IMG/VR virus record: IMGVR_UViG_3300045988_089330
Length of the DNA stretch: 33,342 nt
Reading direction: 5' to 3' (one strand)
Origin: a virus
Shown here piece by piece: positions 12,295-33,342 of this stretch. How positions within the stretch are numbered: the stretch's first letter is position 1; each line of letters starts with the position of its first letter. The notes under the pieces are model-generated. The model searched no databases and was not told the DNA's origin. It was given only the letters and a program-made list of their open reading frames with translations. Made by a program: the position numbers and the translations under genes.

Positions 12295-13155
12295 TCAATC
12301 GCGCACCATACGCGCATATATATAAAAGCCGTCATTTATGTTATTGATCCTCACTTCCGCGTCAATGAATTTATGATCCGGGTATTTCGCTTTTAGCTGC
12401 CTTTCCAAAAAATCGCGATCCACGGCCATTTTCTCAACGGTCCGTTTTCCGAATTTTGAATAACTCCGGCTGACTTCCGGTTTTTTCAATCCCTTTGACG
12501 CGCTCCAACGCTTCTTCCCCTTCGGATCCTTTGTTATGTATGTGACAAGCCCCGTCAAATGCGTGTCGCTGTCTGGATCAAGCCGCTTTGTCTGCGGGCG
12601 GGTTCCATGTTTCCACATTTTTTCTATTTCGTCCCGGTCACAATCCCCGGAAAAAATAATGTGGTGGTGACAACGGATCTTCCGCTTCGGATCGTCGCTG
12701 TATTCCGTGACATAGATATATTTCAGATTTTCTTTTCCCTCTTTCTTGCGCTTCCGATTTATCCTGCGAATAAAATTCGTGAAGATCCTTTGTGCGTCCT
12801 CTATGTCTGCCGGTAAATGCTCATCATCATAACCGAATGTCCCCCATAAATCCCCGGATCCAAAATTCGCGGCCGTTAATTGATTTAGGTATCTGCGCGC
12901 CCGCCGATCGTTCAAGTTCTTTTGTGAAGGTTTGCTTTCCCGCTTTCGTTTGGTTCGCGGCACGTCTGCCTTCTTCCCAAATGAAGGGTATATGTCGATC
13001 TCAACCTGATTTCCTGCTTTCGTGGTGGTGGTTCGGTAAAGGCTGTTCACCTTCTTTTCCTTCAATAGCCGTTCCAACTCCCATTCTTCCAGTGTGTCGA
13101 TCTGCTTCTGATACGCTTCTTCGTAATCGTAATTGTCATACGTCTTTTTCTTCAT
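12295..13155 (-). CDS. Putative HUH-superfamily rolling-circle replication initiator (Rep)
   Basis: Motif 1-like LWGTFGYDDEHLP (compare TLTYDDEHLP of Microviridae VP4-type Reps), HUH motif YIYVTEY...IRCHHHIIF, and Tyr motif LVTYITKD. Confidence 0.55.
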   Translation of the reverse strand: MKKKTYDNYDYEEAYQKQIDTLEEWELERLLKEKKVNSLYRTTTTKAGNQVEIDIYPSFGKKADVPRTKRKRESKPSQKNLNDRRARRYLNQLTAANFGSGDLWGTFGYDDEHLPADIEDAQRIFTNFIRRINRKRKKEGKENLKYIYVTEYSDDPKRKIRCHHHIIFSGDCDRDEIEKMWKHGTRPQTKRLDPDSDTHLTGLVTYITKDPKGKKRWSASKGLKKPEVSRSYSKFGKRTVEKMAVDRDFLERQLKAKYPDHKFIDAEVRINNINDGFYIYARMVRD

Positions 13156-15764: not shown

Positions 15765-16049
15765 CTACACAATGCCGTGTAAATGATGTTCCAGACATAA
15801 AATTTTAAAATCGTCCAGAAGTTCGTCGCGGTACCGGCTCACTTCTGCTACCTGATAACCGGCGTCGTAAAGGCTGTTTTTGATTGCGGACCACTTCGCA
15901 CCGATATAATTTAACAGATAGTCACTAAAATAAACCGTGTTCGGTTCAAATACTGTCAGCCCGGTTTTCGGATCAATCTTCCTTCGTCGTGGCTTCGGTT
16001 TCTGCGGCTCCTGGTGCCGCGTGTTCTCCTGCTGCCTGCTTGTCTTCAT
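15765..16049 (-). CDS. Hypothetical basic protein. It overlaps the 3' end of the methylase gene by 77 nt in another frame.
   Basis: The ATG at 16049 is preceded by AAAGGAAAC. The ORF track's longer version starts at 16073. Confidence 0.5.
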   Translation of the reverse strand: MKTSRQQENTRHQEPQKPKPRRRKIDPKTGLTVFEPNTVYFSDYLLNYIGAKWSAIKNSLYDAGYQVAEVSRYRDELLDDFKILCLEHHLHGIV

Positions 16050-16491
16050 TCTCTGTTTCCTTTCTGAATACAACCACCATAGAAGGGAACGGCGCGGCGT
16101 CTTTGCACCCGCCGAAGTGAAGCCGCCCTTTTACGAAGCGAATTTCCGCTTTATGGTATATGTATTCGTGAAAAAATCTTGTGTCAGTACGCGCGGGAAT
16201 GAGCGCAACAACCACCGTTCCCGGCTTCTGTGCTTCTTCGTAACACTTTTTGATCCATTCGCCCGTTGACGTGCGGCCGTATGGTGGATTGCAAAAGACC
16301 GAACGCCCCCCCCAATCCTTCAAAAGTCCGTTTTGCTCCTTCGTGTAATACTCCGCACACTTCGCGTTCGTATCATCCGCACACGGATCTAAATTGAAGT
16401 GAAATTCCTGATCCAGTGCGTCGAAGAAGTCCTGTGGCGTTTCCCAATCTTCCTTAGCGCTGCTGAACAATGCTTTGTTTAACTGTGCCAT
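15973..16491 (-). CDS. Phage-type DNA N6-adenine methyltransferase
   Basis: WETPQDFF....FNLDPCA....FCNPPYG....ALIPARTDTRFFH matches the phage Dam_N6A family pattern with the NPPY catalytic motif. Contains a G8 tract. Confidence 0.85.
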   Translation of the reverse strand: MAQLNKALFSSAKEDWETPQDFFDALDQEFHFNLDPCADDTNAKCAEYYTKEQNGLLKDWGGRSVFCNPPYGRTSTGEWIKKCYEEAQKPGTVVVALIPARTDTRFFHEYIYHKAEIRFVKGRLHFGGCKDAAPFPSMVVVFRKETENEDKQAAGEHAAPGAAETEATTKED

Positions 16492-16536: not shown

Positions 16537-16947
16537 TTACGCCGGATAAAGTTCCACTTCCGGCCGTCGCACCCCCGTCCAACGCTTCCCATCAGCTTCT
16601 CCGACACATTTCCACCCTGCCGCTTTTAAACTTGTCCCCTTTTCGGTATCAAGGATATATGTAATTAGCTTTTTATATCCCATATTTCGAGTGGCCCGCC
16701 ACGCTGCCGCATAAAGAAAACTGCAGGCGTTTCGCGTTCCGTCTGTGCATAAGCGATTGACTTCTAACGTCCAACCATCATCAAGATAGCGGCTGACCGG
16801 CCGCCCTACAATAGCAACTCCCACAATTTCTCCGTTTTCTGCTGCTGCAACTGAAAATTTGTGTCCGGTGACCGGTTTATGATGTCTGTGGTATCTTTCC
16901 ACAAAAGCATTTGCTTCTTTTAGGCTTATTGGTACTAATTCCAACAT
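16537..16947 (-). CDS. Small GNAT-fold-like protein of the phage family often labelled XF1762-like / acetyltransferase; possible nucleic-acid-modifying role
   Basis: ANAFVERYHRHHKPV.GHKFSV......VGVAIVGRPVSR.LDDG.TLEVNRLCTDG..NACSFLY is a pattern I recall from many phage genomes. Adjacent to a methylase. Confidence 0.45.
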   Translation of the reverse strand: MLELVPISLKEANAFVERYHRHHKPVTGHKFSVAAAENGEIVGVAIVGRPVSRYLDDGWTLEVNRLCTDGTRNACSFLYAAAWRATRNMGYKKLITYILDTEKGTSLKAAGWKCVGEADGKRWTGVRRPEVELYPA

Positions 16948-17930: not shown

Positions 17931-18728
17931 TTAAAATAATGTCAACTGTGTTTCCGGCGCTTGCCGGTTATACCATATAAATTCATGGCGTCTGTGCGCG
18001 TTCTGCGCGTAATTGATCCGTTCTTCCCGCTGCCAATCCTTCAACATATCGTTGTATAAATCCGAAGCATAGCCGGAAATAACCACCGGGCCTTTGTGCT
18101 TCAAAAGTGTTTCCAATAACTCGGCGTGATCCGTGTCGCTCATTTCGTGCCGGTACTGCTTCCCGCGGCGTGTAGAAAGAACATAAGGCGGATCGCAATA
18201 AATCAGCACATTTTCATAATTGAACCGTTTTATTACTTCCACGGCCGGCCGGTTCTCTATCTGTACGCCGCGCAACCGTTCCGCGGCTTCCATGATCTTT
18301 TCCGGTATCTTGCACCACTCCGCGGCGCTGTATGCTTTTTCGCGCCCCTGAATGTCTGCTTTCCACCCGACCTTCTCGCCCGTAGTTCTGAACCCGTGGC
18401 CCATATTCAGACGCACATAGAACAAAACCGCCTTTTCCAAGCTGTCTTCCGGCTCTTTCTGGTAGGCTGCTTCGTATACTTCCCGCGAATACGGTGTGAA
18501 ATAGATTTCATGCGCCAACTTTTCAGGATCGTTCTTTATCCACCGGAAAAGGTTCACCACGTCACCGTCAAGATCGTTTATGGTTTCAATATCCGATCGC
18601 GGTTTGTTGAAGAACACGCCGCCGGAACCGAAGAACGGTTCAACATAGCTATGATGTTTCGGGAAATGTGAAATGATCCATTCAGCCGTTCCCCACTTTG
18701 AACCGGGATATTTCATGATCGCTTTCAT
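17931..18728 (-). CDS. dam: DNA adenine methyltransferase, D12 class (Dam-like)
   Basis: MKYPGSKW....EPFFGSGGVFFN....YCDPPY motifs. The start is set at the ATG at 18728 (ATGA overlap with the upstream stop) rather than the Arg/Gly-rich extension starting at 18860. Confidence 0.88.
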   Translation of the reverse strand: MKAIMKYPGSKWGTAEWIISHFPKHHSYVEPFFGSGGVFFNKPRSDIETINDLDGDVVNLFRWIKNDPEKLAHEIYFTPYSREVYEAAYQKEPEDSLEKAVLFYVRLNMGHGFRTTGEKVGWKADIQGREKAYSAAEWCKIPEKIMEAAERLRGVQIENRPAVEVIKRFNYENVLIYCDPPYVLSTRRGKQYRHEMSDTDHAELLETLLKHKGPVVISGYASDLYNDMLKDWQREERINYAQNAHRRHEFIWYNRQAPETQLTLF

Positions 18729-19198
18729 GCTTCCTTTTCTTCCGTCAAAAGAATGTGTGGCTTGCCTGCGCCTGCTGCCGGTTCTTCCTCTGCTGCCTGC
18801 CGTTCTTCCTCTGCGTCCTTTTCCTCCAGACGCTCCGCGTTCTTTAAAATGATTTCGCAAATCCGGGCTTTCATCAGTTCATCCACGATCCCGACAATGC
18901 GGCTTGCAATCTCCGAAACGCTTTCTTCGTTGTCCCACTCTTTCAGAAGGCGCCGTATTGCTTCCGTAATTACCGTGTATTCGTCCGTTTCGATCTCGAT
19001 CGCGGCTTCCAGTGCTTCTACTTCCTGCGGTTCCTCTTTCTGCCCCGTCACCATTTCCCGTATGTACTCATACGGCACGTTGCAATTAACGCCATTCATC
19101 AGGTTTTCTTTCTGCGCCGCCTGCTTTACAATGTTGAAGAAGTCCGAAAAAGTGACTTCCACCCGATCTTCTCTTGAAAATACGTCTGCCAAACCCAT
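18725..19198 (-). CDS. Hypothetical acidic protein
   Basis: The ATG at 19198 (MGLADVF) is preceded by AAAGGAGATCTGAGAAT. The longer ORF-track version runs into the repeat-rich non-coding region. Confidence 0.55.
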   Translation of the reverse strand: MGLADVFSREDRVEVTFSDFFNIVKQAAQKENLMNGVNCNVPYEYIREMVTGQKEEPQEVEALEAAIEIETDEYTVITEAIRRLLKEWDNEESVSEIASRIVGIVDELMKARICEIILKNAERLEEKDAEEERQAAEEEPAAGAGKPHILLTEEKEA

Positions 19199-19869: not shown

Positions 19870-21036
19870 GTCAAGCGTTAAATGCAAAAAATTTTCGAGG
19901 TTTCCGGCTTCTCCCTTTTTCACAATTTCTATTCAATTTTTTGTGCATATTTCACAATCTGTCATTTATGCCAGTGCTGCCAGTTCTTCGTTGAAGCGTT
20001 CTTCCGCTGTGCCGTAGTCAAACATGGGGCGCGGGTAATTGTTGATCCAGATCTCTATACTTTCCACCGTTCCTTCTGGTAGTGTGTCGAAATCCGTTCC
20101 CTTCGGGACCTGCCGCCGGATCATTCTGTTTTGGTTCTCGTTGGATCCTCTTTCATAACTGCTGTACGGATGGCAATAATATAGTTTTAATCGGCTTCCC
20201 TTCCTACGCGCTGCCTTCTCCAATCCTTCAAAGTCTGCAAACTCCGATCCATTGTCAACGGTGATCGTCTGGAACACTTTATAAAACAGTTTCCCCCACT
20301 TCCTTTCAAGTCTGTTCAGGGCCTTCACCACTTCGGCGGCCGTATGTTTCTTTAACTCCATGATGATTTCTTTCCTTGTCTTCCGTTCTGTCAGTACAAG
20401 AAGTGATTTCTTTGTTTTCCCGCGAAGGCCTAGAACGGTGTCCATTTCCCAATGTCCAAAGGTTTCCCGCGTGTTTATTTCTTCCGGCCGCTTCTCTATG
20501 CTGTCGCCCTTCTGCGCCCGCGCACGACGCACTTTATTATATTTCTTCTTTTCGTCCTTTTTGACCGGCAAATCTTTATTTGTCAGATGAAGAAAGATCC
20601 CTTTGTCAATGTAGTTATAAAGCGTGGGTTTGCTTATCGTGACAGAAAAAGCGATCCCTTTTCTTTTAATCTCGCCCAACACGGCCCCCGGCGAATATTT
20701 TTCATTGATGATCTTGTCTTCAATATATTCTGCCAGTGCAAGGTCATTTCCGATTTTCAGCCCCGGCCCCTTCGCGGCCAAATTCTCCCGATATTTTTCA
20801 TCTGCTATATCCGGGCTATACCGTTCTTCTGTCGTCCAATCTGAATTACGGTGTTCATATCGGCCGCGCTTTAATTCCCGGTATATGGTAGAAATGTGAC
20901 AGCCGATATTATTCGCTATTTCTTCCGGCGTGTGTTTCTCCTTCAAAAGTGCTTCAATCTTTATTCTGTCGTCATGTGTCAGGTGGTGAAAATGTCTCAT
21001 GGTTTGGCTCCTTTCAAAAAAATAACGCCGTGAGCC
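19870..21036 (-). mobile_element. IS30-family element (boundaries tentative)
   Basis: Contains the transposase ORF. The only candidate ends I could find are weak imperfect inverted repeats: tcaagcgttaaat (19871..19883) versus the reverse complement of 21021..21033 (tcacggcgttatt). No clear target-site duplication. Confidence 0.35.
19966..21000 (-). CDS. IS30-family DDE transposase
   Basis: N-terminal HTH (TIYRELKRG) and a DDE core with HWEMDTV, ITVDNGSEFADF and CHPYSSYERGSNENQNRMIRR. Confidence 0.9.
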   Translation of the reverse strand: MRHFHHLTHDDRIKIEALLKEKHTPEEIANNIGCHISTIYRELKRGRYEHRNSDWTTEERYSPDIADEKYRENLAAKGPGLKIGNDLALAEYIEDKIINEKYSPGAVLGEIKRKGIAFSVTISKPTLYNYIDKGIFLHLTNKDLPVKKDEKKKYNKVRRARAQKGDSIEKRPEEINTRETFGHWEMDTVLGLRGKTKKSLLVLTERKTRKEIIMELKKHTAAEVVKALNRLERKWGKLFYKVFQTITVDNGSEFADFEGLEKAARRKGSRLKLYYCHPYSSYERGSNENQNRMIRRQVPKGTDFDTLPEGTVESIEIWINNYPRPMFDYGTAEERFNEELAALA

Positions 21037-22767: not shown

Positions 22768-22796
22768 TAATAACACATATTGCGTAATATTGTAAA
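22768..22796 (-). promoter_or_regulatory. Promoter of the RHH gene (TTTACA-17 nt-TTATTA) with one degenerate operator, ATATTGCGTAATAT, in the spacer
   Basis: Operator at 22777..22790 (13/14 match to the palindrome). -35 at 22791..22796 and -10 at 22768..22773, read on the minus strand. Confidence 0.5.
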
Positions 22797-23198: not shown

Positions 23199-23246
23199 AA
23201 TATAACACATATTGCGCAATATGTCAATAGAATATTGCGCAATATT
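23199..23246 (-). promoter_or_regulatory. Promoter (TTGACA-17 nt-TATATT) with two perfect palindromic operators, ATATTGCGCAATAT
   Basis: Operators at 23209..23222 (in the spacer) and 23233..23246 (upstream of -35). -35 at 23222..23227 and -10 at 23199..23204, on the minus strand. Confidence 0.65.
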
Positions 23247-23583: not shown

Positions 23584-23630
23584 ATTATAACTCATATTGC
23601 GCAATATGTCAATAGGATATTGCGCAATAT
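23584..23630 (-). promoter_or_regulatory. Consensus promoter (TTGACA-17 nt-TATAAT) with two perfect palindromic operators, ATATTGCGCAATAT
   Basis: Operators at 23595..23608 and 23617..23630. -35 at 23607..23612 and -10 at 23584..23589, on the minus strand. Same architecture as 23199..23246. Confidence 0.65.
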
Positions 23631-25515: not shown

Positions 25516-25771
25516 TGTGTTTCCCTCTTTCTAAAATAGAAATTCTGTTTTCGTGTTTCTGCAGGATCTTGTCCTGTTCGTCGTTGTGGTCCCATAATCT
25601 TTTATGGCTTTCCCGGTTATGGCCTTTAAAATCTGAAAACTGCTGATCTAACTGTTTGCACGTTGAAGTTAATTCCGTGATCGCCTTTGTCAAGTTTAAG
25701 ATAGGCCGCACAATGACCGCCGCGCCGCCAAGCAACGTGATAAGCATTGTTATAACCTGCCATTCTGACAT
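25502..25771 (-). CDS. BhlA/UviB-like holin-family protein (N-terminal TM plus coiled coil)
   Basis: The hydrophobic segment VITMLITLLGGAAVIV is followed by a charged helical tail. Located in the lysis cassette. Confidence 0.55.
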   Translation of the reverse strand: MSEWQVITMLITLLGGAAVIVRPILNLTKAITELTSTCKQLDQQFSDFKGHNRESHKRLWDHNDEQDKILQKHENRISILERGKHSEES

Positions 25772-25834
25772 TTTTCCTCACCGCCTTTCAAAACCATAAT
25801 AAAAGGAAAGTCCGGCAATTTCTGACCTTCTTTT

Positions 25835-26866
25835 TCAGGTTGCCTTTCTTTCCTTCAATTCCTTTATGGTTTCCCGCGTGTCCCTGATTAACCGGAACGT
25901 GTCGGCGTGTCCCATGTGTCCGAACCGGCTTTCTATGGAACGATCGAAGTATTCCAATTCTACTTCCCCGGTTTCAAACGCCCGCAATAGTTTCTTTAAG
26001 CGCCGCATGGCCGCTTTGCGGATCTTTTTGTGATCTGCGTAGTGAATATAGCCTACGAAGTTTATTCCGTTCTTTGCGGCTAATATCGTTGTTTTCGGGT
26101 TCAGTTCCAAGCGTAATTCCCGGCGCAAGAAATCTTCTATTTCTGCCAGTATGCGGCGAAGGTGCGCGGGATCCTCCGATAAAATAATAAAATCGTCCAT
26201 ATAACGGACGTAATATTTCAACTTCAATTCATGTTTCACAAACTGATCCAATTTATTTAAATAAACATTTGCGAAAAGCTGTGAAGTCAGATTCCCAACC
26301 GGTATTCCCACGCCCACCGGAAAGATCCCGTTATGGTCTATGATCCGATCAAGGATTTTCAATAATGCTTTGTCGGATATGTAGCGCCGGATCTCCTGCT
26401 TCAATATGTCATGTGAAACGCTCTGGAAATAATGGTGTATATCGCCCTTTATGGCGTATATCTTCTTCCCCTTCACTATTTCCAGATTATAAAGCCACCG
26501 GGAAAGTGTTTCGCTTGCTTCGTGGGCGCCCTTCTTCTGCCTGCAGGCGTAGGAATGGAAAATAAAACGCTTTTCAAAAATCAGTTCAATCAGGTTTACG
26601 ATCATGTGCTGTATCACCCGATCGAAGAACGGAAGCGCCATTATGATCCGTTCCTTTGGCTCCCACACTTTGAAAACGCGGTATTTTCCCGGCTGATAGG
26701 TCCCGTCTTTTAAAGCCTTCACTGCACGAAGTAAATTCGTTTCGCGGTCTGCTTCAAACTCTAAGACTTCCGGCCGGTACCGCTTGCACTTTCTGGCCTT
26801 GTGATATGCTTTCAAGGCGTTTGTGAAAGTGCAGATCTTTTCTATCAAATTTTTAGCTGTCTTCAT
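25835..26866 (-). CDS. Diversity-generating retroelement reverse transcriptase
   Basis: YVRYMDDFIIL (YxDD catalytic motif) and GIPVGNLTSQLFANVYLN (the GxxxSQ signature of DGR RTs). ~340 aa with no maturase or endonuclease domains. Lies next to the TR and avd. Confidence 0.9.
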   Translation of the reverse strand: MKTAKNLIEKICTFTNALKAYHKARKCKRYRPEVLEFEADRETNLLRAVKALKDGTYQPGKYRVFKVWEPKERIIMALPFFDRVIQHMIVNLIELIFEKRFIFHSYACRQKKGAHEASETLSRWLYNLEIVKGKKIYAIKGDIHHYFQSVSHDILKQEIRRYISDKALLKILDRIIDHNGIFPVGVGIPVGNLTSQLFANVYLNKLDQFVKHELKLKYYVRYMDDFIILSEDPAHLRRILAEIEDFLRRELRLELNPKTTILAAKNGINFVGYIHYADHKKIRKAAMRRLKKLLRAFETGEVELEYFDRSIESRFGHMGHADTFRLIRDTRETIKELKERKAT

Positions 26867-27060
26867 GTTCTAAACTTGCCCTACCTCATTTCGCCCCTTC
26901 CGGGTTACTTTCAGGCGGTGCTATTTTACGTTTGTCCGGTATGCCGCCGGAACGGGAACGGCTTTCGCCGTCTTTGCAACCGTCTGACTATATATTGAGA
27001 TTATCCATATATAACCCTTGCCGTGGATCCGGGGATCACGCGGTCTAAAATGCTTTATAA
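26867..27060 (-). ncRNA. DGR spacer region between the TR and the RT gene (expected part of the TR-containing template RNA)
   Basis: Non-coding 194 nt between the TR 3' end and the RT start. Contains local hairpins, for example around ccgtggatccggggatcacgcgg. The role is inferred from the BPP-1 paradigm. Confidence 0.4.
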
Positions 27061-27184
27061 GTCACAGACGCACCAGACGCCAATGTTCGTGTTGACGTTC
27101 CACGGGTAATTGTTGCAATTCACCGCGCGGGAACCGTCGTGAACGCCGTTGTTCCAATTCCCGCCGCCAATCAGCGCGTGAAGG
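27061..27184 (-). repeat. DGR template repeat (TR)
   Basis: 124 bp, 110/124 identical to 27691..27814. All 14 differences are at T on the plus strand, which is A on the transcribed sense. Confidence 0.92.
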
Positions 27185-27212
27185 TGCGAATTAACAGTTG
27201 CCCCAAAATTCT

Positions 27213-27629
27213 TTATTTCTTCTTCGCCTGCTGTACTTCTTTTATCAGGCCGCCGATCATAGCGCCTATTATGCCGGTCTGCTTCGCACAGTATAAATAA
27301 GGCCCGTCGCTTATAGCCGAATAACCTAAATCATGTGCAAGGCGAAGTTTCCGCACAAGCCGCCGTTTCATCCGGTCCGCGGTGTAAAGGTGGCTTGCAA
27401 CCTTCGTGATCTCGTACATTTCGACTTCATCCAAAAGCGCGTCTATGCTCTCCCGTATGTCCTTTTGAAGCGTGAATTTCTCATAATGCGGAAATTTCTT
27501 CAATTTTTCGTGAAGATAAATTGAAAAATCATAGGCTATTTGGTGCGCGTCCGTATGCGTATAATCCATTTCTGCCGTCGCCTGCGCGCTGCCCGTGGCA
27601 CTTTTGCTTCTGCTTTGATAATTTCCCAT
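27213..27629 (-). CDS. avd: DGR accessory variability determinant (Avd, four-helix-bundle family)
   Basis: 138-aa basic helical protein (AHQIAYDFSIYLHEKLKKFP..EKFTLQKDIRESIDALLDEV....A) between the target gene and the TR. Confidence 0.8.
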   Translation of the reverse strand: MGNYQSRSKSATGSAQATAEMDYTHTDAHQIAYDFSIYLHEKLKKFPHYEKFTLQKDIRESIDALLDEVEMYEITKVASHLYTADRMKRRLVRKLRLAHDLGYSAISDGPYLYCAKQTGIIGAMIGGLIKEVQQAKKK

Positions 27630-27652
27630 GTGTCATTCTCCCGGAAGGTTTA

Positions 27653-27675
27653 GGGGCTGCCCTTTCGGGCGCCCC
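27653..27675 (-). promoter_or_regulatory. GC-rich hairpin with a GAAA tetraloop 15 nt 3' of the VR (candidate DGR target-recognition cruciform)
   Basis: The minus strand reads ggggc-gccc-gaaa-gggc-a-gcccc. Confidence 0.6.
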
Positions 27676-27681
27676 TTCTGC

Positions 27682-28794
27682 TTACAGCGCGTCACAGACG
27701 CACCAGACGCCAATGTACGTGTAGACGTTCCACGGGTAACCGTCGCAAGCCACCGCGCGGGAACCGTCGCGAACGCCGCCGCCCCAACGCCCGCCGCCAA
27801 TCAGCGCGTGAAGGGCTGTCGCCGAAGGCATATAAGCGTCACCATACCCGGTTCCAAGTACATCCTGCCACGCCCACGTTGTCGCTGTGGGATCCAAACA
27901 AAATTCGTCAAGCCATTTCCAGACGTTACCCACAAGATCGCGGATATTCAACGCGGAAATAGCGTTCTGAACATATCCCGTTTTCTGCCGTCCGGTGTTT
28001 CCCGTCGCGCTCCATGCGTAGGTATTGTTCCCGTCCTGCCCCTCCGGGCTACCTGCTGCCGCCTGACAAAATTCCGCGTAGGTGGGAAGGCGTTTTCCGA
28101 CGCGTCGGGCCTTCTCGTTTGCGATATACCAGTTAAGGCCCTCCGTTCCGGTGATCGGCGTCGCGTTATATTTGCTCTGCAGGCCGTTGCTTCCATTGTC
28201 GGATGATAAATAAATATCGCCCCACAATCCATTCCCCAAGTAAACCATACCGGAAGGATCGTCGCACTTCGGACGGTGCTTTGTTGTCCATACGCTGTTC
28301 GGCACAATTCCCGTATACACATTTCCTTCCCAACCGCTGCCGTTTTCCGTCCCGCTGCTGCTGATCGGGTTTCCGCTTGCGTTTACGCGCCTTACGATCC
28401 CGTAATGGAAGCCGCCCACTTTGCGGCTGTTCTCTGCTGTGTACCCGGAAGGATAGGTGGAATTTTTAGAAATCACAAAAATTTCATCCTGATCCAATGT
28501 TTCGGAACCGTTGGAAGGATCACAACAATAAATATAATAATCGCTGCCCTTCTCAAATCCGCTTCCAGTGTCAAGGTTCGCGGCGGTCAAGTTGGTTAAG
28601 GTGGTTTCAAAAATTGACGGCCCGACGGCGATTATCACGCCTGCGGCGATCGTTACCTGATCGGGCGACGCGGAACCGGCGGCGGTGATATACTGCGCCT
28701 TCTGCGCCACAATGTCGCCCATAGCTGACAACTTCGCCGTGGTGATCTTTGCCTTCGTGTTCATCATGGTTTCGTCATAAAGAAAAAATTTCAT
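27682..28794 (-). CDS. DGR target protein: putative receptor-binding (tail fibre tip) protein with a C-terminal C-type lectin / FGE-sulfatase-fold variable domain
   Basis: LNWYIANEKARRVGKRLPTYAEF......RDLVGNVWKWLDEF is FGE/CLec-like. The VR encodes the last ~40 aa (...GGGRWGGGVRDGSRAVACDGYPWNVYTYIGVWCVCDAL). Confidence 0.85.
   Translation of the reverse strand: MKFFLYDETMMNTKAKITTAKLSAMGDIVAQKAQYITAAGSASPDQVTIAAGVIIAVGPSIFETTLTNLTAANLDTGSGFEKGSDYYIYCCDPSNGSETLDQDEIFVISKNSTYPSGYTAENSRKVGGFHYGIVRRVNASGNPISSSGTENGSGWEGNVYTGIVPNSVWTTKHRPKCDDPSGMVYLGNGLWGDIYLSSDNGSNGLQSKYNATPITGTEGLNWYIANEKARRVGKRLPTYAEFCQAAAGSPEGQDGNNTYAWSATGNTGRQKTGYVQNAISALNIRDLVGNVWKWLDEFCLDPTATTWAWQDVLGTGYGDAYMPSATALHALIGGGRWGGGVRDGSRAVACDGYPWNVYTYIGVWCVCDAL
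27691..27814 (-). repeat. DGR variable repeat (VR) at the 3' end of the target gene
   Basis: See TR. Substitutions at 27717, 27723, 27740, 27741, 27744, 27749, 27750, 27770, 27779, 27780, 27782, 27783, 27788 and 27789. Confidence 0.92.
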
Positions 28795-28834
28795 GGTCTG
28801 TTCTCCCTTCTGCTTTGTAAATCCTGATTTTGTC

Positions 28835-29284
28835 TTACACTACGCGGCCTGCTGCCAGTTCTTCTTTGATCTGGTTCATTTCGTCTTCGGTAATGTCTAA
28901 GGCTTCATAAACCGACGGCGTATTGTGGATTTTCAGCGACGCGGAACCGGCAGCGATCGCTCTGGATAACGTGATCGCGGTCTTCTCTTTCTCCACCTTG
29001 CCTTCTTCGTCCGGCTCCCCGTTCAAATGCTCCACGGTCTGAATAGTGGCCGTCACGCCGCCCGCCGTCACTTTCCCTTCTGCTGCCGCTTCGCTGCAAT
29101 ACATAACCGTTACCGTCTTTCTGTCCTCTGACAGATCCACAACCGGGCAAGTGATGAAATTCTGATTTTCGATCCCGCTGATCGCTTCCAGAAGATCCGC
29201 GGCTTCCAGTTCCCCGGCCGCTACCAATGTGCGACAATTCTTCACGTCCTGCGCTGTTTTTAATACTTTCGGAAATCCTTTCAT
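28835..29284 (-). CDS. Hypothetical tail-fibre-region protein
   Basis: 149-aa ORF with a strong RBS AAAAGGAGAAG, between the fibre gene and the DGR target. Confidence 0.5.
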   Translation of the reverse strand: MKGFPKVLKTAQDVKNCRTLVAAGELEAADLLEAISGIENQNFITCPVVDLSEDRKTVTVMYCSEAAAEGKVTAGGVTATIQTVEHLNGEPDEEGKVEKEKTAITLSRAIAAGSASLKIHNTPSVYEALDITEDEMNQIKEELAAGRVV

Positions 29285-29302
29285 GCTGTCTTCTCCTTTT
29301 CT

Positions 29303-30370
29303 TTAATTTTGTGATGATACATAGGCGCCCACATAGCCGCCCACGGCTGCGAAAGCGTTCTTGTCGTAAATACTGAATGTAACCGTTTCCGTTGTCTTCG
29401 TATGGTCCAGAACGAAGGTTTTCGGGATAATGTTCAAGGTGTCGCTTTGTGCTTCCACCGTGTATTCTCCCGGCTCCGTCAGATAGGTTTTTCCCTCTGC
29501 CGAATATGTAACCGTCGTTTTGTTCCCGCTGTCCTTGTTTATAATGTCGATCAGGATCACGCCGGTTTCCTTTGACAGATTTTCAAACATTACTTTCGTT
29601 GCAAGATTTTTTATGTGGGCCGTCAAATCGTTCACGGCGTTCTGCAAGGCTCCGGCGGCGTCTTCGGATAACTGATCCTTTATCCCTTCAAACCACGCGG
29701 TAAAGACCGCCTGCTGCTGCTGTGAATAGCTTTCAAACTGGCTTTCCATATCCCGAAGGGCGGCGGCGCCTTTATCCTCTAAATTGACGATCTGCGCCAT
29801 GTAGGAATTAAATTCCTGCGTTATACTGGCCTGATAGCGTGTGAAGTACGCCTGAAACTGCGCCGTGACCTGCGAAAAGTCAATTTCCTTTACCGTCGCC
29901 ATAACCCAACCGCAAACGTCGCTGTTCATGCGCGTGTCGGTGATGTTCTCCTGCGTGATCTTAATCGCGCCCACATCCACATATATTTCGGCCAATTTCA
30001 GATCGTGGACCGCTTCGCTTCTCACAATCTCCGGCGCCGTGGGATTTTTGGAAAAGCCGCCGGTTTCAATGAAAATATAAAAATCCCTTTCGGTATCATC
30101 CCGACGCAAGATCACGTTGTCGATCCGGGCCAGTGTTCCTGACGCCTTTTCAAGCGTGAAGATCTGCGCCTGTTCAAAATGCTTTGTCTTCCCGTTGATA
30201 TTTACATATCCCCCTGCGACGGTTACGGTCATATCGTCGTTTGCTGTGATCGCAAAACAATTATTGAAAACGCCCGTTGTGAAGAATGGTAAAAGCCATT
30301 CGCTCATGCTGTCCGCATTATAAACGCGGTCCCCATTTCTGGAATTATAGAAGTTTGCATACTGTCCCAT
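29303..30370 (-). CDS. Putative tail fibre / baseplate-attached structural protein
   Basis: The N-terminal pattern NGDRVYNADSMSEWLLPFFTTGVF....V..G...ING........RID.VILR.D...R......ITDTR....CGWV is common at the N-termini of Gram-positive siphophage fibre or upper-baseplate proteins. Follows Tal. Confidence 0.55.
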   Translation of the reverse strand: MGQYANFYNSRNGDRVYNADSMSEWLLPFFTTGVFNNCFAITANDDMTVTVAGGYVNINGKTKHFEQAQIFTLEKASGTLARIDNVILRRDDTERDFYIFIETGGFSKNPTAPEIVRSEAVHDLKLAEIYVDVGAIKITQENITDTRMNSDVCGWVMATVKEIDFSQVTAQFQAYFTRYQASITQEFNSYMAQIVNLEDKGAAALRDMESQFESYSQQQQAVFTAWFEGIKDQLSEDAAGALQNAVNDLTAHIKNLATKVMFENLSKETGVILIDIINKDSGNKTTVTYSAEGKTYLTEPGEYTVEAQSDTLNIIPKTFVLDHTKTTETVTFSIYDKNAFAAVGGYVGAYVSSQN

Positions 30371-32287: not shown

Positions 32288-33342
32288 TTAAACGCCCCCT
32301 TGTATCTGTAATACTATTTGCCGCGTCGCGTTTCTGGTCTGTCTGGCCGTCTCATACGGGGAAAGTTCCTTCGGGCTTGTAATGTTCACGTTCTGGACAA
32401 AACTTCGCGCCTGCTGCCCCGTGGCCGCGTCAAGCGCGGTATTTTTCGCGCTTCTGGTTAATGGCGTCACAATCGCTTCACCGTTCACCATTTGGATCAA
32501 CTCCGGCCCCGCTTCTGCCATGATCGCTTGACCGTTCTTCAAAATACCGCCTTTTGCCAGACGTGGAAGTGATACGGTTCCCACATGGCCCACGCTTACG
32601 CCCGGAAGTTTATTGATAACGTCAATCGCGCCGTTTATAAGTCCGATCGCGCCGTTTATTGCGTTCTCTACTGTTGCGATCGCGCTGTTTATCGCAGTTT
32701 TGAAGGCGCCGCCGATCGCGTTTCCTATATTAGTTCCTACATTCGTAAATACGCCCTTTATACTCGACCATATTCCAGAAAAAAATGTACCTATATTTGA
32801 AAACACGTTCTTTATGTTTGTGTACGCTTCATTGAATTTCGTTTGGAACCATGTTCCCACTGCCGAAAATACGTTTTTTATATCCGTCCAACGTGCCGAA
32901 AACCACTGACCGATCGCCGCAAAAACATTCTTCACGTTTGTGTAGGCGTTCTGGAACATTGTCAAGAACCACGTCGCCACCGTCGCAAGTGCCGTTTTTA
33001 TGTCCGTCCAACGGGCGCCGAACCACTGGCCGATCGCCGAAAAGACGTTCTTCACGTTCGTGTAGGCGTTCTGGAACATTGTCAAGAACCACGTCGCCAC
33101 CGTCGCAAGTGCCGTTTTTATGTCCGTCCAACGGGCGCCGAACCACTGGCCGATCGCCGAAAAGACGTTCTTCACGTTCGTGTAGGCGTTCTGGAACATT
33201 GTCAAGAACCACGTCGCCACTGTTGAAAGCGCCGTTTTTATGTCCGTCCAACGGGCGCCGAACCACTGGCCAATCGCCGCAAAAACATTCTTCACGTTCG
33301 TGTAGGCGTTCTGGAACATTGTCAAGAACCACGTCGCCACCG
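32288..33342 (-). CDS. Tail tape measure protein, C-terminal part (open at the right window edge)
   Basis: Repeats ATWFLTMFQNAYTNVKNVF.AIGQWFGARWTDIKTAL.TV, then a Gly/Ala-rich region and the C-terminus. It is in frame with 1..1975 when the 54-nt terminal overlap is merged. The combined length is about 990 aa. Confidence 0.88.
   Translation of the reverse strand, partial: VATWFLTMFQNAYTNVKNVFAAIGQWFGARWTDIKTALSTVATWFLTMFQNAYTNVKNVFSAIGQWFGARWTDIKTALATVATWFLTMFQNAYTNVKNVFSAIGQWFGARWTDIKTALATVATWFLTMFQNAYTNVKNVFAAIGQWFSARWTDIKNVFSAVGTWFQTKFNEAYTNIKNVFSNIGTFFSGIWSSIKGVFTNVGTNIGNAIGGAFKTAINSAIATVENAINGAIGLINGAIDVINKLPGVSVGHVGTVSLPRLAKGGILKNGQAIMAEAGPELIQMVNGEAIVTPLTRSAKNTALDAATGQQARSFVQNVNITSPKELSPYETARQTRNATRQIVLQIQGGV
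32821..33342 (-). repeat. 120-bp (40-codon) in-frame tandem repeats in the tape measure gene; two copies are identical
   Basis: 32941..33060 is identical to 33061..33180. 33181..33300 differs at about 10 positions. 32821..32940 is more diverged. The array continues across the window junction. Confidence 0.9.

Follow-up and report, generated by a model that had tools for sequence, protein, structure and literature searches.

A BPP-1-type DGR, very probably active in the recent past, in a Lachnospiraceae phage of the human gut

We report here that two direct repeats in the genome of a gut phage are almost certainly the template repeat (TR) and the variable region (VR) of an intact and recently active diversity-generating retroelement (DGR) of the BPP-1 type. 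The DNA analyzed, 33,342 nucleotides of IMG/VR virus record IMGVR_UViG_3300045988_089330, is called the window throughout. The carrier of the DGR is a temperate siphovirus of about 33 kb from human-gut Lachnospiraceae. All the DGR parts around the repeat pair are present and intact in the window. They lie on the minus strand in the following order: an mtd-like tail gene with the VR at its 3' end, a GC-rich hairpin with a GAAA loop, avd, the TR, a spacer of about 194 nt and the gene for the reverse transcriptase (RT).

The TR (27061..27184, minus strand), a non-coding element, has 26 adenines among its 124 nt. It begins 28 nt past the avd stop codon and is located between avd and the RT gene, outside any long minus-strand ORF. 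The VR (27691..27814, minus strand) has the same length and ends 6 nt ahead of the stop codon of the target gene. The first-pass annotation had aligned both repeats without gaps, with 110 identities over 124 positions. This alignment was reproduced, with homology breaking off abruptly at each end, and our list of 14 mismatch coordinates is exactly the one given earlier. As had been claimed, all 14 mismatches are T on the plus strand, i.e. A on the coding (minus) strand. In sense orientation the VR carries G at ten of these sites, C at two and T at two. With 26 adenines in 124 nt, the probability that 14 random mismatches would all hit adenines is 8.9e-12. This figure has to be set against a rival explanation in which the tail gene had its 3' end duplicated in the ordinary way and the copies diverged by point mutation, drift or selection, with no retroelement involved. 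Two direct repeats that are 630 nt apart and share 89% identity could in principle be such diverged copies, but in all 14 cases the differing position is an adenine of the same copy, the TR. A repeat search of the window reported TR and VR as the sole pair. Likewise, a pattern search allowing N at each adenine found two copies only within the window, the TR and the VR, versus 0 expected by chance. A second VR elsewhere in the window was rejected on the result of this pattern search.

Read in frame, the two repeats gave the translations and codon changes already listed in the first-pass annotation: AAT to CGT, AAC to GGC (twice), CAC to CGC, AAT to GCT, AAC to GAC, AAT to GGT and AAC to TAC (twice). 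The codon table bears out that eight of the nine changed codons are AAY, and that one AAC codon (in W-N-V) is still unchanged. In total the TR has nine AAY codons and eight codons with a single adenine. None of the 26 adenines occupies a third codon position, all being at positions 1 and 2, and no adenine-containing codon can be turned into a stop codon by adenine substitution. Because of this placement of the 26 adenines and of the nine AAY codons, mutagenesis could vary 16–17 residues of the putative lectin-like ligand-binding surface at the C-terminus and introduce no stop codon, which corresponds to up to about 1e14–1e15 protein variants.

Further copies of the phage were looked up by protein identity, and ten further human-gut metagenome samples (11 in one count) were found to encode an identical Avd or RT protein. 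When IMG/VR and the metagenome collection were scanned for the exact TR, only a sister phage (L001 type) came back, the lineage of the window being recovered by the protein look-up. Outside the VR, the cassette differs from that of the window by 0–5 of 2,836 bases in nine of ten samples, most of them being identical or different at 1–2 bases. In the tenth sample, L166, the RT gene apparently contains an indel, and its RT is apparently truncated (297 aa). The first-pass annotation had suggested that related copies should share the TR and carry different VRs. This check was run in ten further samples: the TR was identical in nine of the ten (and in 10 of 11 when 11 samples are counted), with a 3-nt TR change in sample L172 that was not copied into the L172 VR. 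The VRs, each of which may be a consensus of several haplotypes when assembled from a metagenome, differ from the window VR and among themselves in nine of ten samples, at 13–18 sites versus the window and each time at a TR adenine. Counting the window and 11 samples, 11 distinct VRs are present in 12 copies of the phage. Compared with the window TR, no difference was found in any sample at the other 98 positions, and 24 of the 26 adenine sites were seen varying among samples. The only VR identical to that of the window comes from sample L178, which is probably the source contig of the window; L178 derives from ERR1293855 of PRJEB12449. Since the cassettes are near-identical while their VRs differ at 13–18 adenine sites, diversification has occurred within a time of almost no change elsewhere in the cassette. 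The earlier claim of adenine-specific mutagenic retrohoming by an element that has been active is thus supported, both by the intact parts and by sample VRs that differ at TR adenines only. We rejected the opposite flow of information, from the coding copy, since across samples the invariant copy is the non-coding one.

In 58 loci of the wider family, 692 of 716 TR/VR mismatches (97%) are at TR adenines, and there are 20 distinct TRs versus 56 distinct VRs. Six loci of a sister lineage have essentially one TR (that of L003 is one base off) and six different VRs. One criterion of the first-pass annotation proved invalid, namely that covariation of TR and VR between related genomes would speak for the ordinary divergence of a duplication. 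Sublineages do share non-adenine substitutions in TR and VR, as would be predicted for a VR that TR-derived cDNA overwrites again and again, and this is no argument against a DGR. Such lineage-specific substitutions could be read in favour of duplication, but they are a prediction of repeated TR-to-VR copying. What validly separates the two explanations is the fate of the adenine positions, kept in the TR and scrambled in the VR, and this is the pattern seen here. Phage genomes that are nearly the same keep the non-coding copy unchanged, and their coding copies differ in almost every sample, at adenine sites only. This comparison, the 97% of mismatches at TR adenines in the wider family, and the presence of an intact RT and Avd of a DGR, next to the copies and between them, all stand against a duplication. 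The cross-sample TR/VR comparison effectively refutes it, and we give this explanation a negligible chance of being right.

Another possibility is that the DGR is genuine but inactive in the window genome, the 14 differences being a frozen record of past homing. Current activity cannot be shown by one sequence. In addition, the apparently truncated RT of L166, the TR change of L172 that is absent from its VR and the closest sister lineage (L001 type), where three separate records (L001, L163 and L165) carry the same VR, fit with a loss of activity. From these three cases it follows that inactive or quiescent copies probably exist. The shared VR also indicates that VR turnover is not so fast that each record differs, unless the three records, from OIPU01000340, OIJJ01000552 and IMG/VR 3300045988_046801, share an origin. 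However, the RT, Avd, TR, spacer, hairpin and target ORF of the window are all intact, and they are identical to, or 1–2 of 2,836 bases different from, those of most samples, whose VRs differ at 13–18 adenine sites. An inactive DGR in the window is therefore very unlikely, and recent activity is the reading that we retain.

The RT (343 aa; 25835..26866, minus strand) is matched by Pfam RVT_1 with an E-value of 5e-23. It shares 36% identity with BPP-1 Brt over 325 aa (E 4e-64). Its best match in the PDB is the BPP-1 enzyme bRT (8ub7_A, E 1.5e-56), and group II intron RTs come far behind, at about 1e-17. RTs of the DGR clade are recognized by [I/V/L]GxxxSQ, a motif of RT domain 4, together with a catalytic YxDD box (PMC3521204). 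The window RT has both signatures, VGNLTSQ at residues 190–196 (window 26279–26299, minus strand) and YMDD at residues 222–225 (window 26192–26203, minus strand), and belongs to this clade by that definition. Its R73 and V190 align with R74 and I181 of bRT, two residues shown to promote adenine mutagenesis. The avd gene (accessory variability determinant; 138 aa; 27213..27629, minus strand) was assigned by profile comparison. As a single sequence, Avd scores below the curated cut-offs of Pfam bAvd (E 1.8e-9, 38.5 versus 40 bits) and NCBIfam DivGenRetAVD (E 5.6e-11, 42.7 versus 80 bits), has no match in PDB sequences and shows no BLASTP or phmmer similarity to BPP-1 Avd (Bbp7). A profile of the 25-member Avd family matches the BPP-1 Avd structures 4dwl (E 2e-12) and 8ub7_B (E 2e-11), and hhalign against Bbp7 gives a probability of 97.7%. 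These profile matches confirm that the protein is the Avd of the DGR. As a family, Avd proteins are four-helix-bundle pentamers that bind the RT and are found in most DGRs, although not in all.

The target gene (27682..28794, minus strand) encodes a Mtd-like phage tail protein of 370 aa, putatively receptor-binding, with the VR at its C-terminus. It matches Pfam mtd_2nd above the curated cut-off (E 3.6e-32), the FGE-sulfatase/CLec-type domain of Pfam (E 5e-7, 30 bits versus a cut-off of 23.3) and a PHROG family annotated as tail protein (E 2e-71). Compared with BPP-1 Mtd it is 30% identical over nearly the full length (E 5e-29). The match with PDB 1yu0 has an E-value of 7.6e-17, and the alignment with the sequences of the Mtd crystal structures runs from end to end, VR segment included. 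The variable residues are thus probably displayed on a CLec/FGE-sulfatase-like fold. The gene is the last of the tail module, directly downstream of siphovirus tail genes (Dit, Gp37-like), and homology and gene neighbourhood together suggest that the protein is a receptor-binding protein. VR diversification would most likely re-tune receptor binding and host range. An active DGR could also have a target that is not a host-range determinant, and that binds mucus, glycans or other environmental ligands, or serves to evade antibodies or bacterial surface decoys. DGR targets of gut phages in surveys indeed include head-decoration and other non-fibre proteins (bioRxiv 10.64898/2026.01.26.701711). 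Against this, the protein is homologous over its full length to Mtd, which determines the tropism of BPP-1, it has the tail protein match in PHROG, its gene comes after those for Dit and the Gp37-like protein, and the AAY positions line up, as read by eye, with those of the BPP-1 TR. We consider such a role unlikely and favour a host-range determinant. The phage then offers a clean natural demonstration of a BPP-1-type DGR that, in many people, diversifies what is probably the tail receptor-binding protein of a widespread Lachnospiraceae phage. That the putative receptor-binding tip is almost unique per sample, with the rest of the cassette nearly constant, bears on how gut phages track the variation of host surfaces.

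A GC-rich hairpin or cruciform, GGGGCGCCC-GAAA-GGGC(A)GCCCC (27653..27675, minus strand), was found by DNA folding 14–15 nt 3' of the VR and is the predicted target-recognition element. It has a stem of 9–10 bp with one bulged A in the 3' arm, and a GAAA loop. Its position is kept in 19 distinct relatives, in which the stem sequences differ and the loops are all of the GRNA type. All 76 of 76 loop-proximal pair cells are Watson-Crick, with 2–3 pair types per position, that is, with compensatory changes. The published element consists of a GC-rich stem of 7–10 bp with a 4-nt GRNA loop, is located 4–34 bp downstream of the VR and is needed for target recognition (PMC3240598). The hairpin of the window fits this consensus, and a role in targeting is predicted for it. 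The idea that it is a mere terminator of the tail gene was dropped, as no T-tract follows it and the terminator scan did not call it; in the region 25700–29400, the promoter/terminator scan gave nothing above shuffled expectation. At their 3' ends, TR and VR share a GC-rich stretch of 23 identical nt, after which the gapless homology ceases and only a degenerate, gapped resemblance is left (CTGTAA-GCA for the VR versus TTATAAAGCA for the TR). The repeats are identical up to this end of homology, 4 nt after the predicted cDNA start, and a clear BPP-1-style IMH/IMH* pair is absent. Presumably, the TR-to-VR directionality is set by the hairpin, which flanks the VR only.

The spacer (Sp; 26867..27060, minus strand) is a conserved structured RNA of 194 nt between the TR and the RT start. 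Across 17 family members it shows conserved blocks, such as the invariant AGTCAGAC, and covarying hairpins, with compensatory changes in 7 of 11 predicted pairs. One block, CTCAATA..GTCAG, is common to the window and BPP-1; in BPP-1 the adenosine of its GTCAG part, Sp A56, provides the 2'-OH that serves as primer. The GUCA of the spacer is complementary to UGAC, the last 4 nt of the TR. We infer that Sp76 (window 26985) may be the priming adenosine. The first templated nucleotide would be TR G120 (window 27065), by homology with TR G117 of BPP-1 in the shared GCGTCTGTG block. A scan of the whole window at the Rfam gathering threshold found no family, and no curated model covers the DGR spacer RNA. 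The minimum-free-energy fold of TR and spacer as one RNA was no different from shuffles (z -0.59). Following BPP-1, the RT-Avd complex would bind an RNA that spans the avd 3' end, the TR and the spacer. The predicted adenosine Sp76 would fold back on the TR 3' end through UGAC:GUCA pairing and prime cDNA synthesis from about TR G120. The RT would copy U, C and G faithfully and insert any nucleotide opposite A, and the adenine-mutagenised cDNA would then replace the VR, targeted by the GC-rich 3' end that both repeats have in common and by the flanking hairpin or cruciform. The RNA intermediate, priming site, cDNA start and hairpin requirement of this scheme are all predictions by homology. As a compact Gram-positive DGR that is easily aligned with that of BPP-1, the cassette provides predicted priming and initiation nucleotides for comparative mechanistic work.

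The phage has SPP1-type holin and tail genes, and its host is a Gram-positive gut Lachnospiraceae. The nearest catalogued relative of the RT is 87% identical, 435 related RT loci were detected in bacterial and archaeal genome assemblies, and the relatives with at least 56% identity are all from Clostridia (17 of 17), mostly Lachnospiraceae. In the assembly collection, 348 blocks index the exact Avd protein of the window. The phage is common and widespread in the human gut, and its DGR is, as a kind of system, already well known. Megablast of the 3-kb cassette against 50,697 GenBank phage records gave no match, and no paper describing this phage was found in the literature. What is new here is the sequence of this particular phage DGR, and neither its kind nor its mechanism. 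No sequence feature contradicting the DGR model was encountered. The phage carries an IS30-family transposase, and no integrase was found among the phage ORFs scanned; for these two reasons it may belong to the class of IS30-mobilised ('IScream') phages, reportedly a recent proposal. A joint reading can be offered tentatively, although we regard it as doubtful: a highly prevalent gut phage, possibly of the IS30-mobilised class, would have kept the exact BPP-1 priming and initiation blocks across the Gram-negative/Gram-positive divide, without a mismatched IMH*, and would have added a conserved bulged adenine to the target hairpin. If targeting and priming depended on nothing more than the bulged hairpin and the minimal 4-nt overlap of TR 3' end and spacer, the cassette would be a compact natural variant that could help to define a minimal DGR.

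Among known systems, the founding member of the DGRs, that of Bordetella phage BPP-1 (mtd - avd/bbp7 - TR - brt), has the same gene order and orientation as the cassette of the window. The likeness includes the RT (36% identical, with the same [I/V/L]GxxxSQ and YMDD motifs), the target (30% identical to Mtd), the Avd (related at the profile level), the GC hairpin with a GAAA loop after the VR, the GCGTCTGTG block at the cDNA start and the CTCAATA..GTCAG at the priming adenosine. The TRs are similar in length (124 versus 134 nt) and have a common scaffold, G-G-N-W-N-N...G-S-R-A...N-x-N-N...N-x-N-x-N-I-G, and in the in-frame translations, read by eye, their Asn-coding AAY codons are at matching positions. 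In contrast to BPP-1, the window represents a siphovirus virion and a Gram-positive gut Lachnospiraceae host. Its TR lies 28 nt from avd and contains nine AAY and eight single-adenine codons, and its spacer is longer (194 versus 144 nt). The hairpin has the bulged A in its 3' arm, and the Avd is extended at its N-terminus and shows no pairwise similarity to Bbp7. There is also no 35-bp IMH/IMH* region with scattered mismatches, the homology stopping 4 nt after the predicted cDNA start. The host group and habitat of the window phage are shared by DGRs of gut Firmicutes prophages, such as those of Eubacterium rectale DSM 17629 (Guo et al. 2011), Clostridium clostridioforme LM41 phi3, Faecalibacterium prophages and the 'GuFi' phages. 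These have the same components, i.e. a FGE-sulfatase/CLec target, Avd and RT (PMC11318856), and a hairpin with a GRNA loop was previously recorded for an E. rectale prophage (PMC3240598). DGRs have been reported as common and active in prevalent Lachnospiraceae phages. From the DGRs of gut Firmicutes prophages, that of the window phage differs in sequence and not in kind. The DGR of the Bacteroides Hankyphage and the chromosomal DGRs of Legionella (LdtA) and Treponema (TvpA) also use an RT of the same clade for adenine-specific TR-to-VR mutagenesis of a C-terminal domain with the CLec fold, but they differ in host, in cassette order and in the scaffold of the target. The DGR of the window, which has a true Mtd homologue as target, is much closer to that of BPP-1 than to these three.

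Direct comparison of the extracted intervals 27061-27184 and 27691-27814 gave a gapless alignment with 110 of 124 positions identical, as claimed in the first-pass annotation, and identity is lost at once beyond either end. The first copy is a non-coding template repeat (TR; 27184-27061, minus strand), while the second is the variable region (VR; 27814-27691, minus strand, 124 nt), which ends six nt before the stop codon of the target gene. At all 14 mismatches the TR carries a T on the plus strand, i.e. an A on the minus (coding) strand. The 14 coordinates agree exactly with those listed earlier, as do the in-frame translations, the nine codon changes (eight of them in AAY codons) and the one AAC left unchanged (W-N-V). 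The TR contains, in sense orientation, 26 A, 38 G, 34 C and 26 T, and the hypergeometric probability that 14 of 14 mismatches fall on adenines is 8.9e-12. In the VR these adenines are replaced by G (ten times), C (twice) or T (twice). No TR adenine (0 of 26) occupies a third codon position, and a stop codon is unreachable by any substitution at these sites. Searching the window with N at all adenine positions returned these two copies only, with none expected by chance. The observation of the TR/VR pair is confirmed in full, and we are close to certain that it belongs to an active diversity-generating retroelement (DGR).

The same phage was located in other samples by exact-protein look-up of the window's accessory variability determinant (Avd) and reverse transcriptase (RT) in an assembly collection, where the exact Avd occurs on contigs in 348 blocks and the exact RT in 328 blocks. 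The retrieved set comprised 15 loci from 11 different samples, compared over the 2,960-nt cassette. One of them, L178, has the cassette of the window and is probably its source contig; hence, ten further samples were counted. Outside the VR, nine of the ten show 0-5 differences from the window per 2,836 positions, the tenth (L166) having an apparent indel in the RT gene. Nine of the ten have the TR of the window unaltered, and nine of the ten have a VR that departs from the window's at 13-18 sites, each time at a TR adenine. Relatives sharing the TR and carrying different VRs are what the first-pass annotation had anticipated. A mismatch at a non-adenine template position, which it held to speak against mutagenic homing, was found neither in the window nor in any same-phage VR compared with the window TR. 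The 12 same-phage copies (window and L178 included) carry 11 distinct VRs; a VR read from a metagenome assembly may blend several haplotypes into one consensus. Because the VRs differ at so many adenines and the rest of the cassette is nearly unchanged, diversification has been repeated, within the time in which the remaining cassette barely changed. The earlier view that the element has been active, by adenine-specific mutagenic retrohoming, is thereby supported. In at least one sample, 24 of the 26 TR adenines are mutated. The remaining two, A48 (window 27137) in the Asp codon of the conserved V-H-D-G-S-R segment and A123 (window 27062) located 3' of the predicted cDNA start, are constant in all samples.

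Two copies deserve separate mention. In L172 (L172:3446-3569, sample ERZ28579858), a 3-nt TR change at positions 47-49, GAC to TGT (window 27136-27138), is absent from its own VR and falls in the Asp codon whose adenine varies in no sample. Either this copy has not undergone homing since the TR change, or homed products were lost through selection. In L166 (L166:3764-4657, sample ERZ653721), the RT is called as 297 instead of 343 aa, with the apparent indel about 2.7 kb into the cassette, and the VR is unique despite the apparently truncated RT. Recent inactivation or a mistake in assembly may explain this copy. Not every copy of the phage need be active.

A protein-guided scan of IMG/VR with the window RT yielded 80 loci, and a scan of GTDB genomes at least 80 more. 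In the GTDB scan, the 17 genome relatives with an RT identity of at least 56% all belong to Clostridia, most of them being MAGs or isolates of Lachnospiraceae. When each locus was searched blindly for its best imperfect direct repeat, most loci gave the VR-avd-TR-RT arrangement. Among 58 close-family loci, window included, TR adenines account for 692 of the 716 TR/VR mismatches, 40 loci have adenine mismatches only, and 20 distinct TRs stand against 56 distinct VRs. For example, six loci (L002, L003, L004, L006, L008 and L009) have essentially one TR, with L003 one base off, and six different VRs. The copy that stays constant is the non-coding one and the copy that changes is the coding one, which gives the direction of information flow, from TR to VR. 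Non-adenine TR changes between sublineages, such as GGTTCCCGC versus GGTTCGCGC versus GGCGACCGC, are repeated in the cognate VR. The first-pass annotation would have taken such covariation as ordinary divergence of a duplication. This was mis-specified, because covariation is expected when TR sequence is copied over the VR again and again; the shared changes are concerted evolution. The nearest IMG/VR relative has an RT 87% identical to that of the window. This sister lineage, of the L001 type, has one identical VR (L001:4056-4179) in three records, L001 (IMG/VR 3300045988_046801), L163 (OIPU01000340) and L165 (OIJJ01000552), in contrast to nearly one VR per sample in the window's lineage. These records may share a donor, study or origin, or the VR may be frozen and the element quiescent.

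All relevant cassette genes are on the minus strand, in the 5' to 3' order target (VR), hairpin, avd, TR, spacer and RT. The target (28794-27682, 370 aa) matches the Pfam 'Mtd second domain' (E 3.6e-32), an FGE-sulfatase/C-type-lectin-like domain (Pfam) and the PHROG 'tail protein', and is 30% identical across nearly its entire length to Mtd, the major tropism determinant of BPP-1, the Bordetella phage of the founding DGR. The cassette closes a siphovirus tail module, which encodes a tape-measure protein (40-aa repeats), Dit, a Gp37-like protein, two unknown proteins and the Mtd-like target; an SPP1-type holin and a glucosaminidase/amidase endolysin follow. From its homology to Mtd and its position in the tail module, the target probably functions in receptor binding, and hence in host range. 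Nine AAY codons (15 aa each) and eight single-adenine codons (4 each) give a theoretical repertoire of about 2.5e15 proteins, or arithmetically about 1.6e14 without the two invariant adenine sites. As a single sequence, Avd (27629-27213) is under the curated cut-offs of Pfam and NCBIfam and has no pairwise match to BPP-1 Avd and no PDB match. A profile of 25 orthologues from related loci matches the BPP-1 Avd structures 4dwl and 8ub7_B (E about 2e-12), with an hhalign probability of 97.7% to Bbp7, the BPP-1 Avd. The RT (26866-25835, 343 aa) is 36% identical to BPP-1 Brt, and its best solved-structure match, the bRT chain of the bRT-Avd-RNA structures (8ub7), beats group II intron RTs by 40 orders of magnitude. 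It carries YMDD and VGNLTSQ, the DGR signature being [I/V/L]GxxxSQ (PMC3521204). R73 and V190 align with bRT R74 and I181, which promote adenine mutagenesis (PMC7826257).

Target recognition in BPP-1 depends on a hairpin/cruciform immediately 3' of the VR that is rich in GC and has a GRNA loop of 4 nt; its stem structure and loop sequence matter and its stem sequence does not (PMC3240598). The hairpin at 27675-27653 (minus strand, GGGGCGCCC-GAAA-GGGC(A)GCCCC), 15 nt after the VR, fits this description. The loop is GRNA in 19 of 19 distinct relatives, and every one of the 76 loop-proximal pair cells is a Watson-Crick pair, each position showing two or three different pair types. No T-tract follows the window hairpin, which rules out an intrinsic terminator. 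A single unpaired A lies in the 3' arm, after the fourth or fifth base, in the window (27653-27675) and in L010, L012, L046, L055, L084, L091 and L092, sublineages with differing stem sequences. The bulge is a G in L048, and the equivalent A is paired with a T in the L051 group. We found no mention of a bulged A in the consulted parts of the hairpin study (PMC3240598).

In BPP-1, the 2'-OH of spacer (Sp) A56 serves as primer for the cDNA, which starts at TR G117, with TR U118 pairing with Sp A56 (PMC6182149); by counting in the BPP-1 record, A56 lies within GGTCAG and G117 within GCGTCTGTG. The latter is likewise present at the 3' end of the window TR. In the 194-nt window spacer, between TR and RT on the minus strand, the block TCTCAATATATAGTCAG aligns with BPP-1 CCTCAATAGGTGGTCAG. 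Within the family AGTCAGAC is invariant across 17 members and flanked by hairpins with compensatory changes in 7 of 11 predicted pairs. Homology with these BPP-1 blocks points to Sp76 (window 26985) as the priming adenosine and TR G120 (window 27065) as the first templated base. The TR ends in UGAC, which is the complement of GUCA in the spacer. RT-Avd would bind an RNA made of the avd 3' end, TR and spacer, Sp76 would prime cDNA from TR G120, and the target would be recognized through the GC-rich GRNA-loop hairpin; these steps at the RNA and cDNA level, like the priming nucleotide and the need for the hairpin, are predicted. About half of TR adenines are substituted in BPP-1, in vitro and in vivo, and 14 of 26 in the window VR.

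Elsewhere the window encodes terminase, portal, Clp-type protease and major head genes. The tape-measure gene, with 120-nt (40-aa) tandem repeats of families D1-D3, spans both window ends (1-1978 and 32290-33342, minus strand). As the joined ends read through in a single uninterrupted 1,010-codon frame and other samples hold the phage as contigs of 32.1-33.4 kb, the window probably represents the whole genome, circular or circularly permuted, opened at the repeat. An IS30-family transposase-like gene (19966-21000, minus strand, 344 aa) has HTH_38 and an rve integrase core (PHROG 'transposase', E 4e-141), and among the scanned window ORFs neither a tyrosine nor a serine integrase was seen. The phage also sits within contigs up to 128 kb, and together these features are consistent with 'IScream', a class of phages that a 2025 preprint proposed to be mobilised by IS30 (PMC12247996). 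Four copies of the perfect 14-bp palindrome ATATTGCGCAATAT are present, as two tandem pairs inside an 86-nt repeat, and a fifth copy has one mismatch (22777-22790, 23209-23245 and 23594-23630); none is expected by chance. Lying in short intergenic stretches between small ORFs adjoining the lysis module, they look like operator sites of a repressor or regulator. Two N6-adenine DNA methyltransferases (Dam family, D12 class) and a weak Mom-like protein (15973-16491, 16537-16947 and 17931-18860, minus strand) indicate several DNA-modification functions, presumably directed against host restriction. A rolling-circle Rep-type replication initiator (12295-13155, minus strand; Pfam REP_ORF2-G2P, PHROG replication initiation protein, E 3e-79) is found within this tailed-phage genome.

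The element is a BPP-1-type DGR in every defining feature testable here, and the annotated BPP-1 record has the same order and orientation of mtd (VR1), bbp7/avd, TR and brt. The differences are details. The phage has a siphovirus virion and a Gram-positive host, the spacer is longer, Avd is divergent, and the hairpin 3' arm has a bulged adenine common to several sublineages. There is also no obvious mismatched IMH*, the 3'-end TR element that with IMH of the VR sets directionality in BPP-1, since TR/VR homology ends 4 nt past the predicted cDNA start. Nothing in the GenBank phage collection matched the window phage. DGRs with an FGE-sulfatase/CLec target, Avd and RT are already described in gut Firmicutes prophages such as that of Eubacterium rectale (PMC3240598); others are in Clostridium clostridioforme LM41 phi3 (PMC11318856), in Faecalibacterium prophages (PMC11792537) and, in active form, in the prevalent Lachnospiraceae 'GuFi' phages. 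Thus, with the nearest IMG/VR RT at its distance, the phage is new and the class already known, and the finding is real and neatly demonstrable, yet unsurprising to a specialist.
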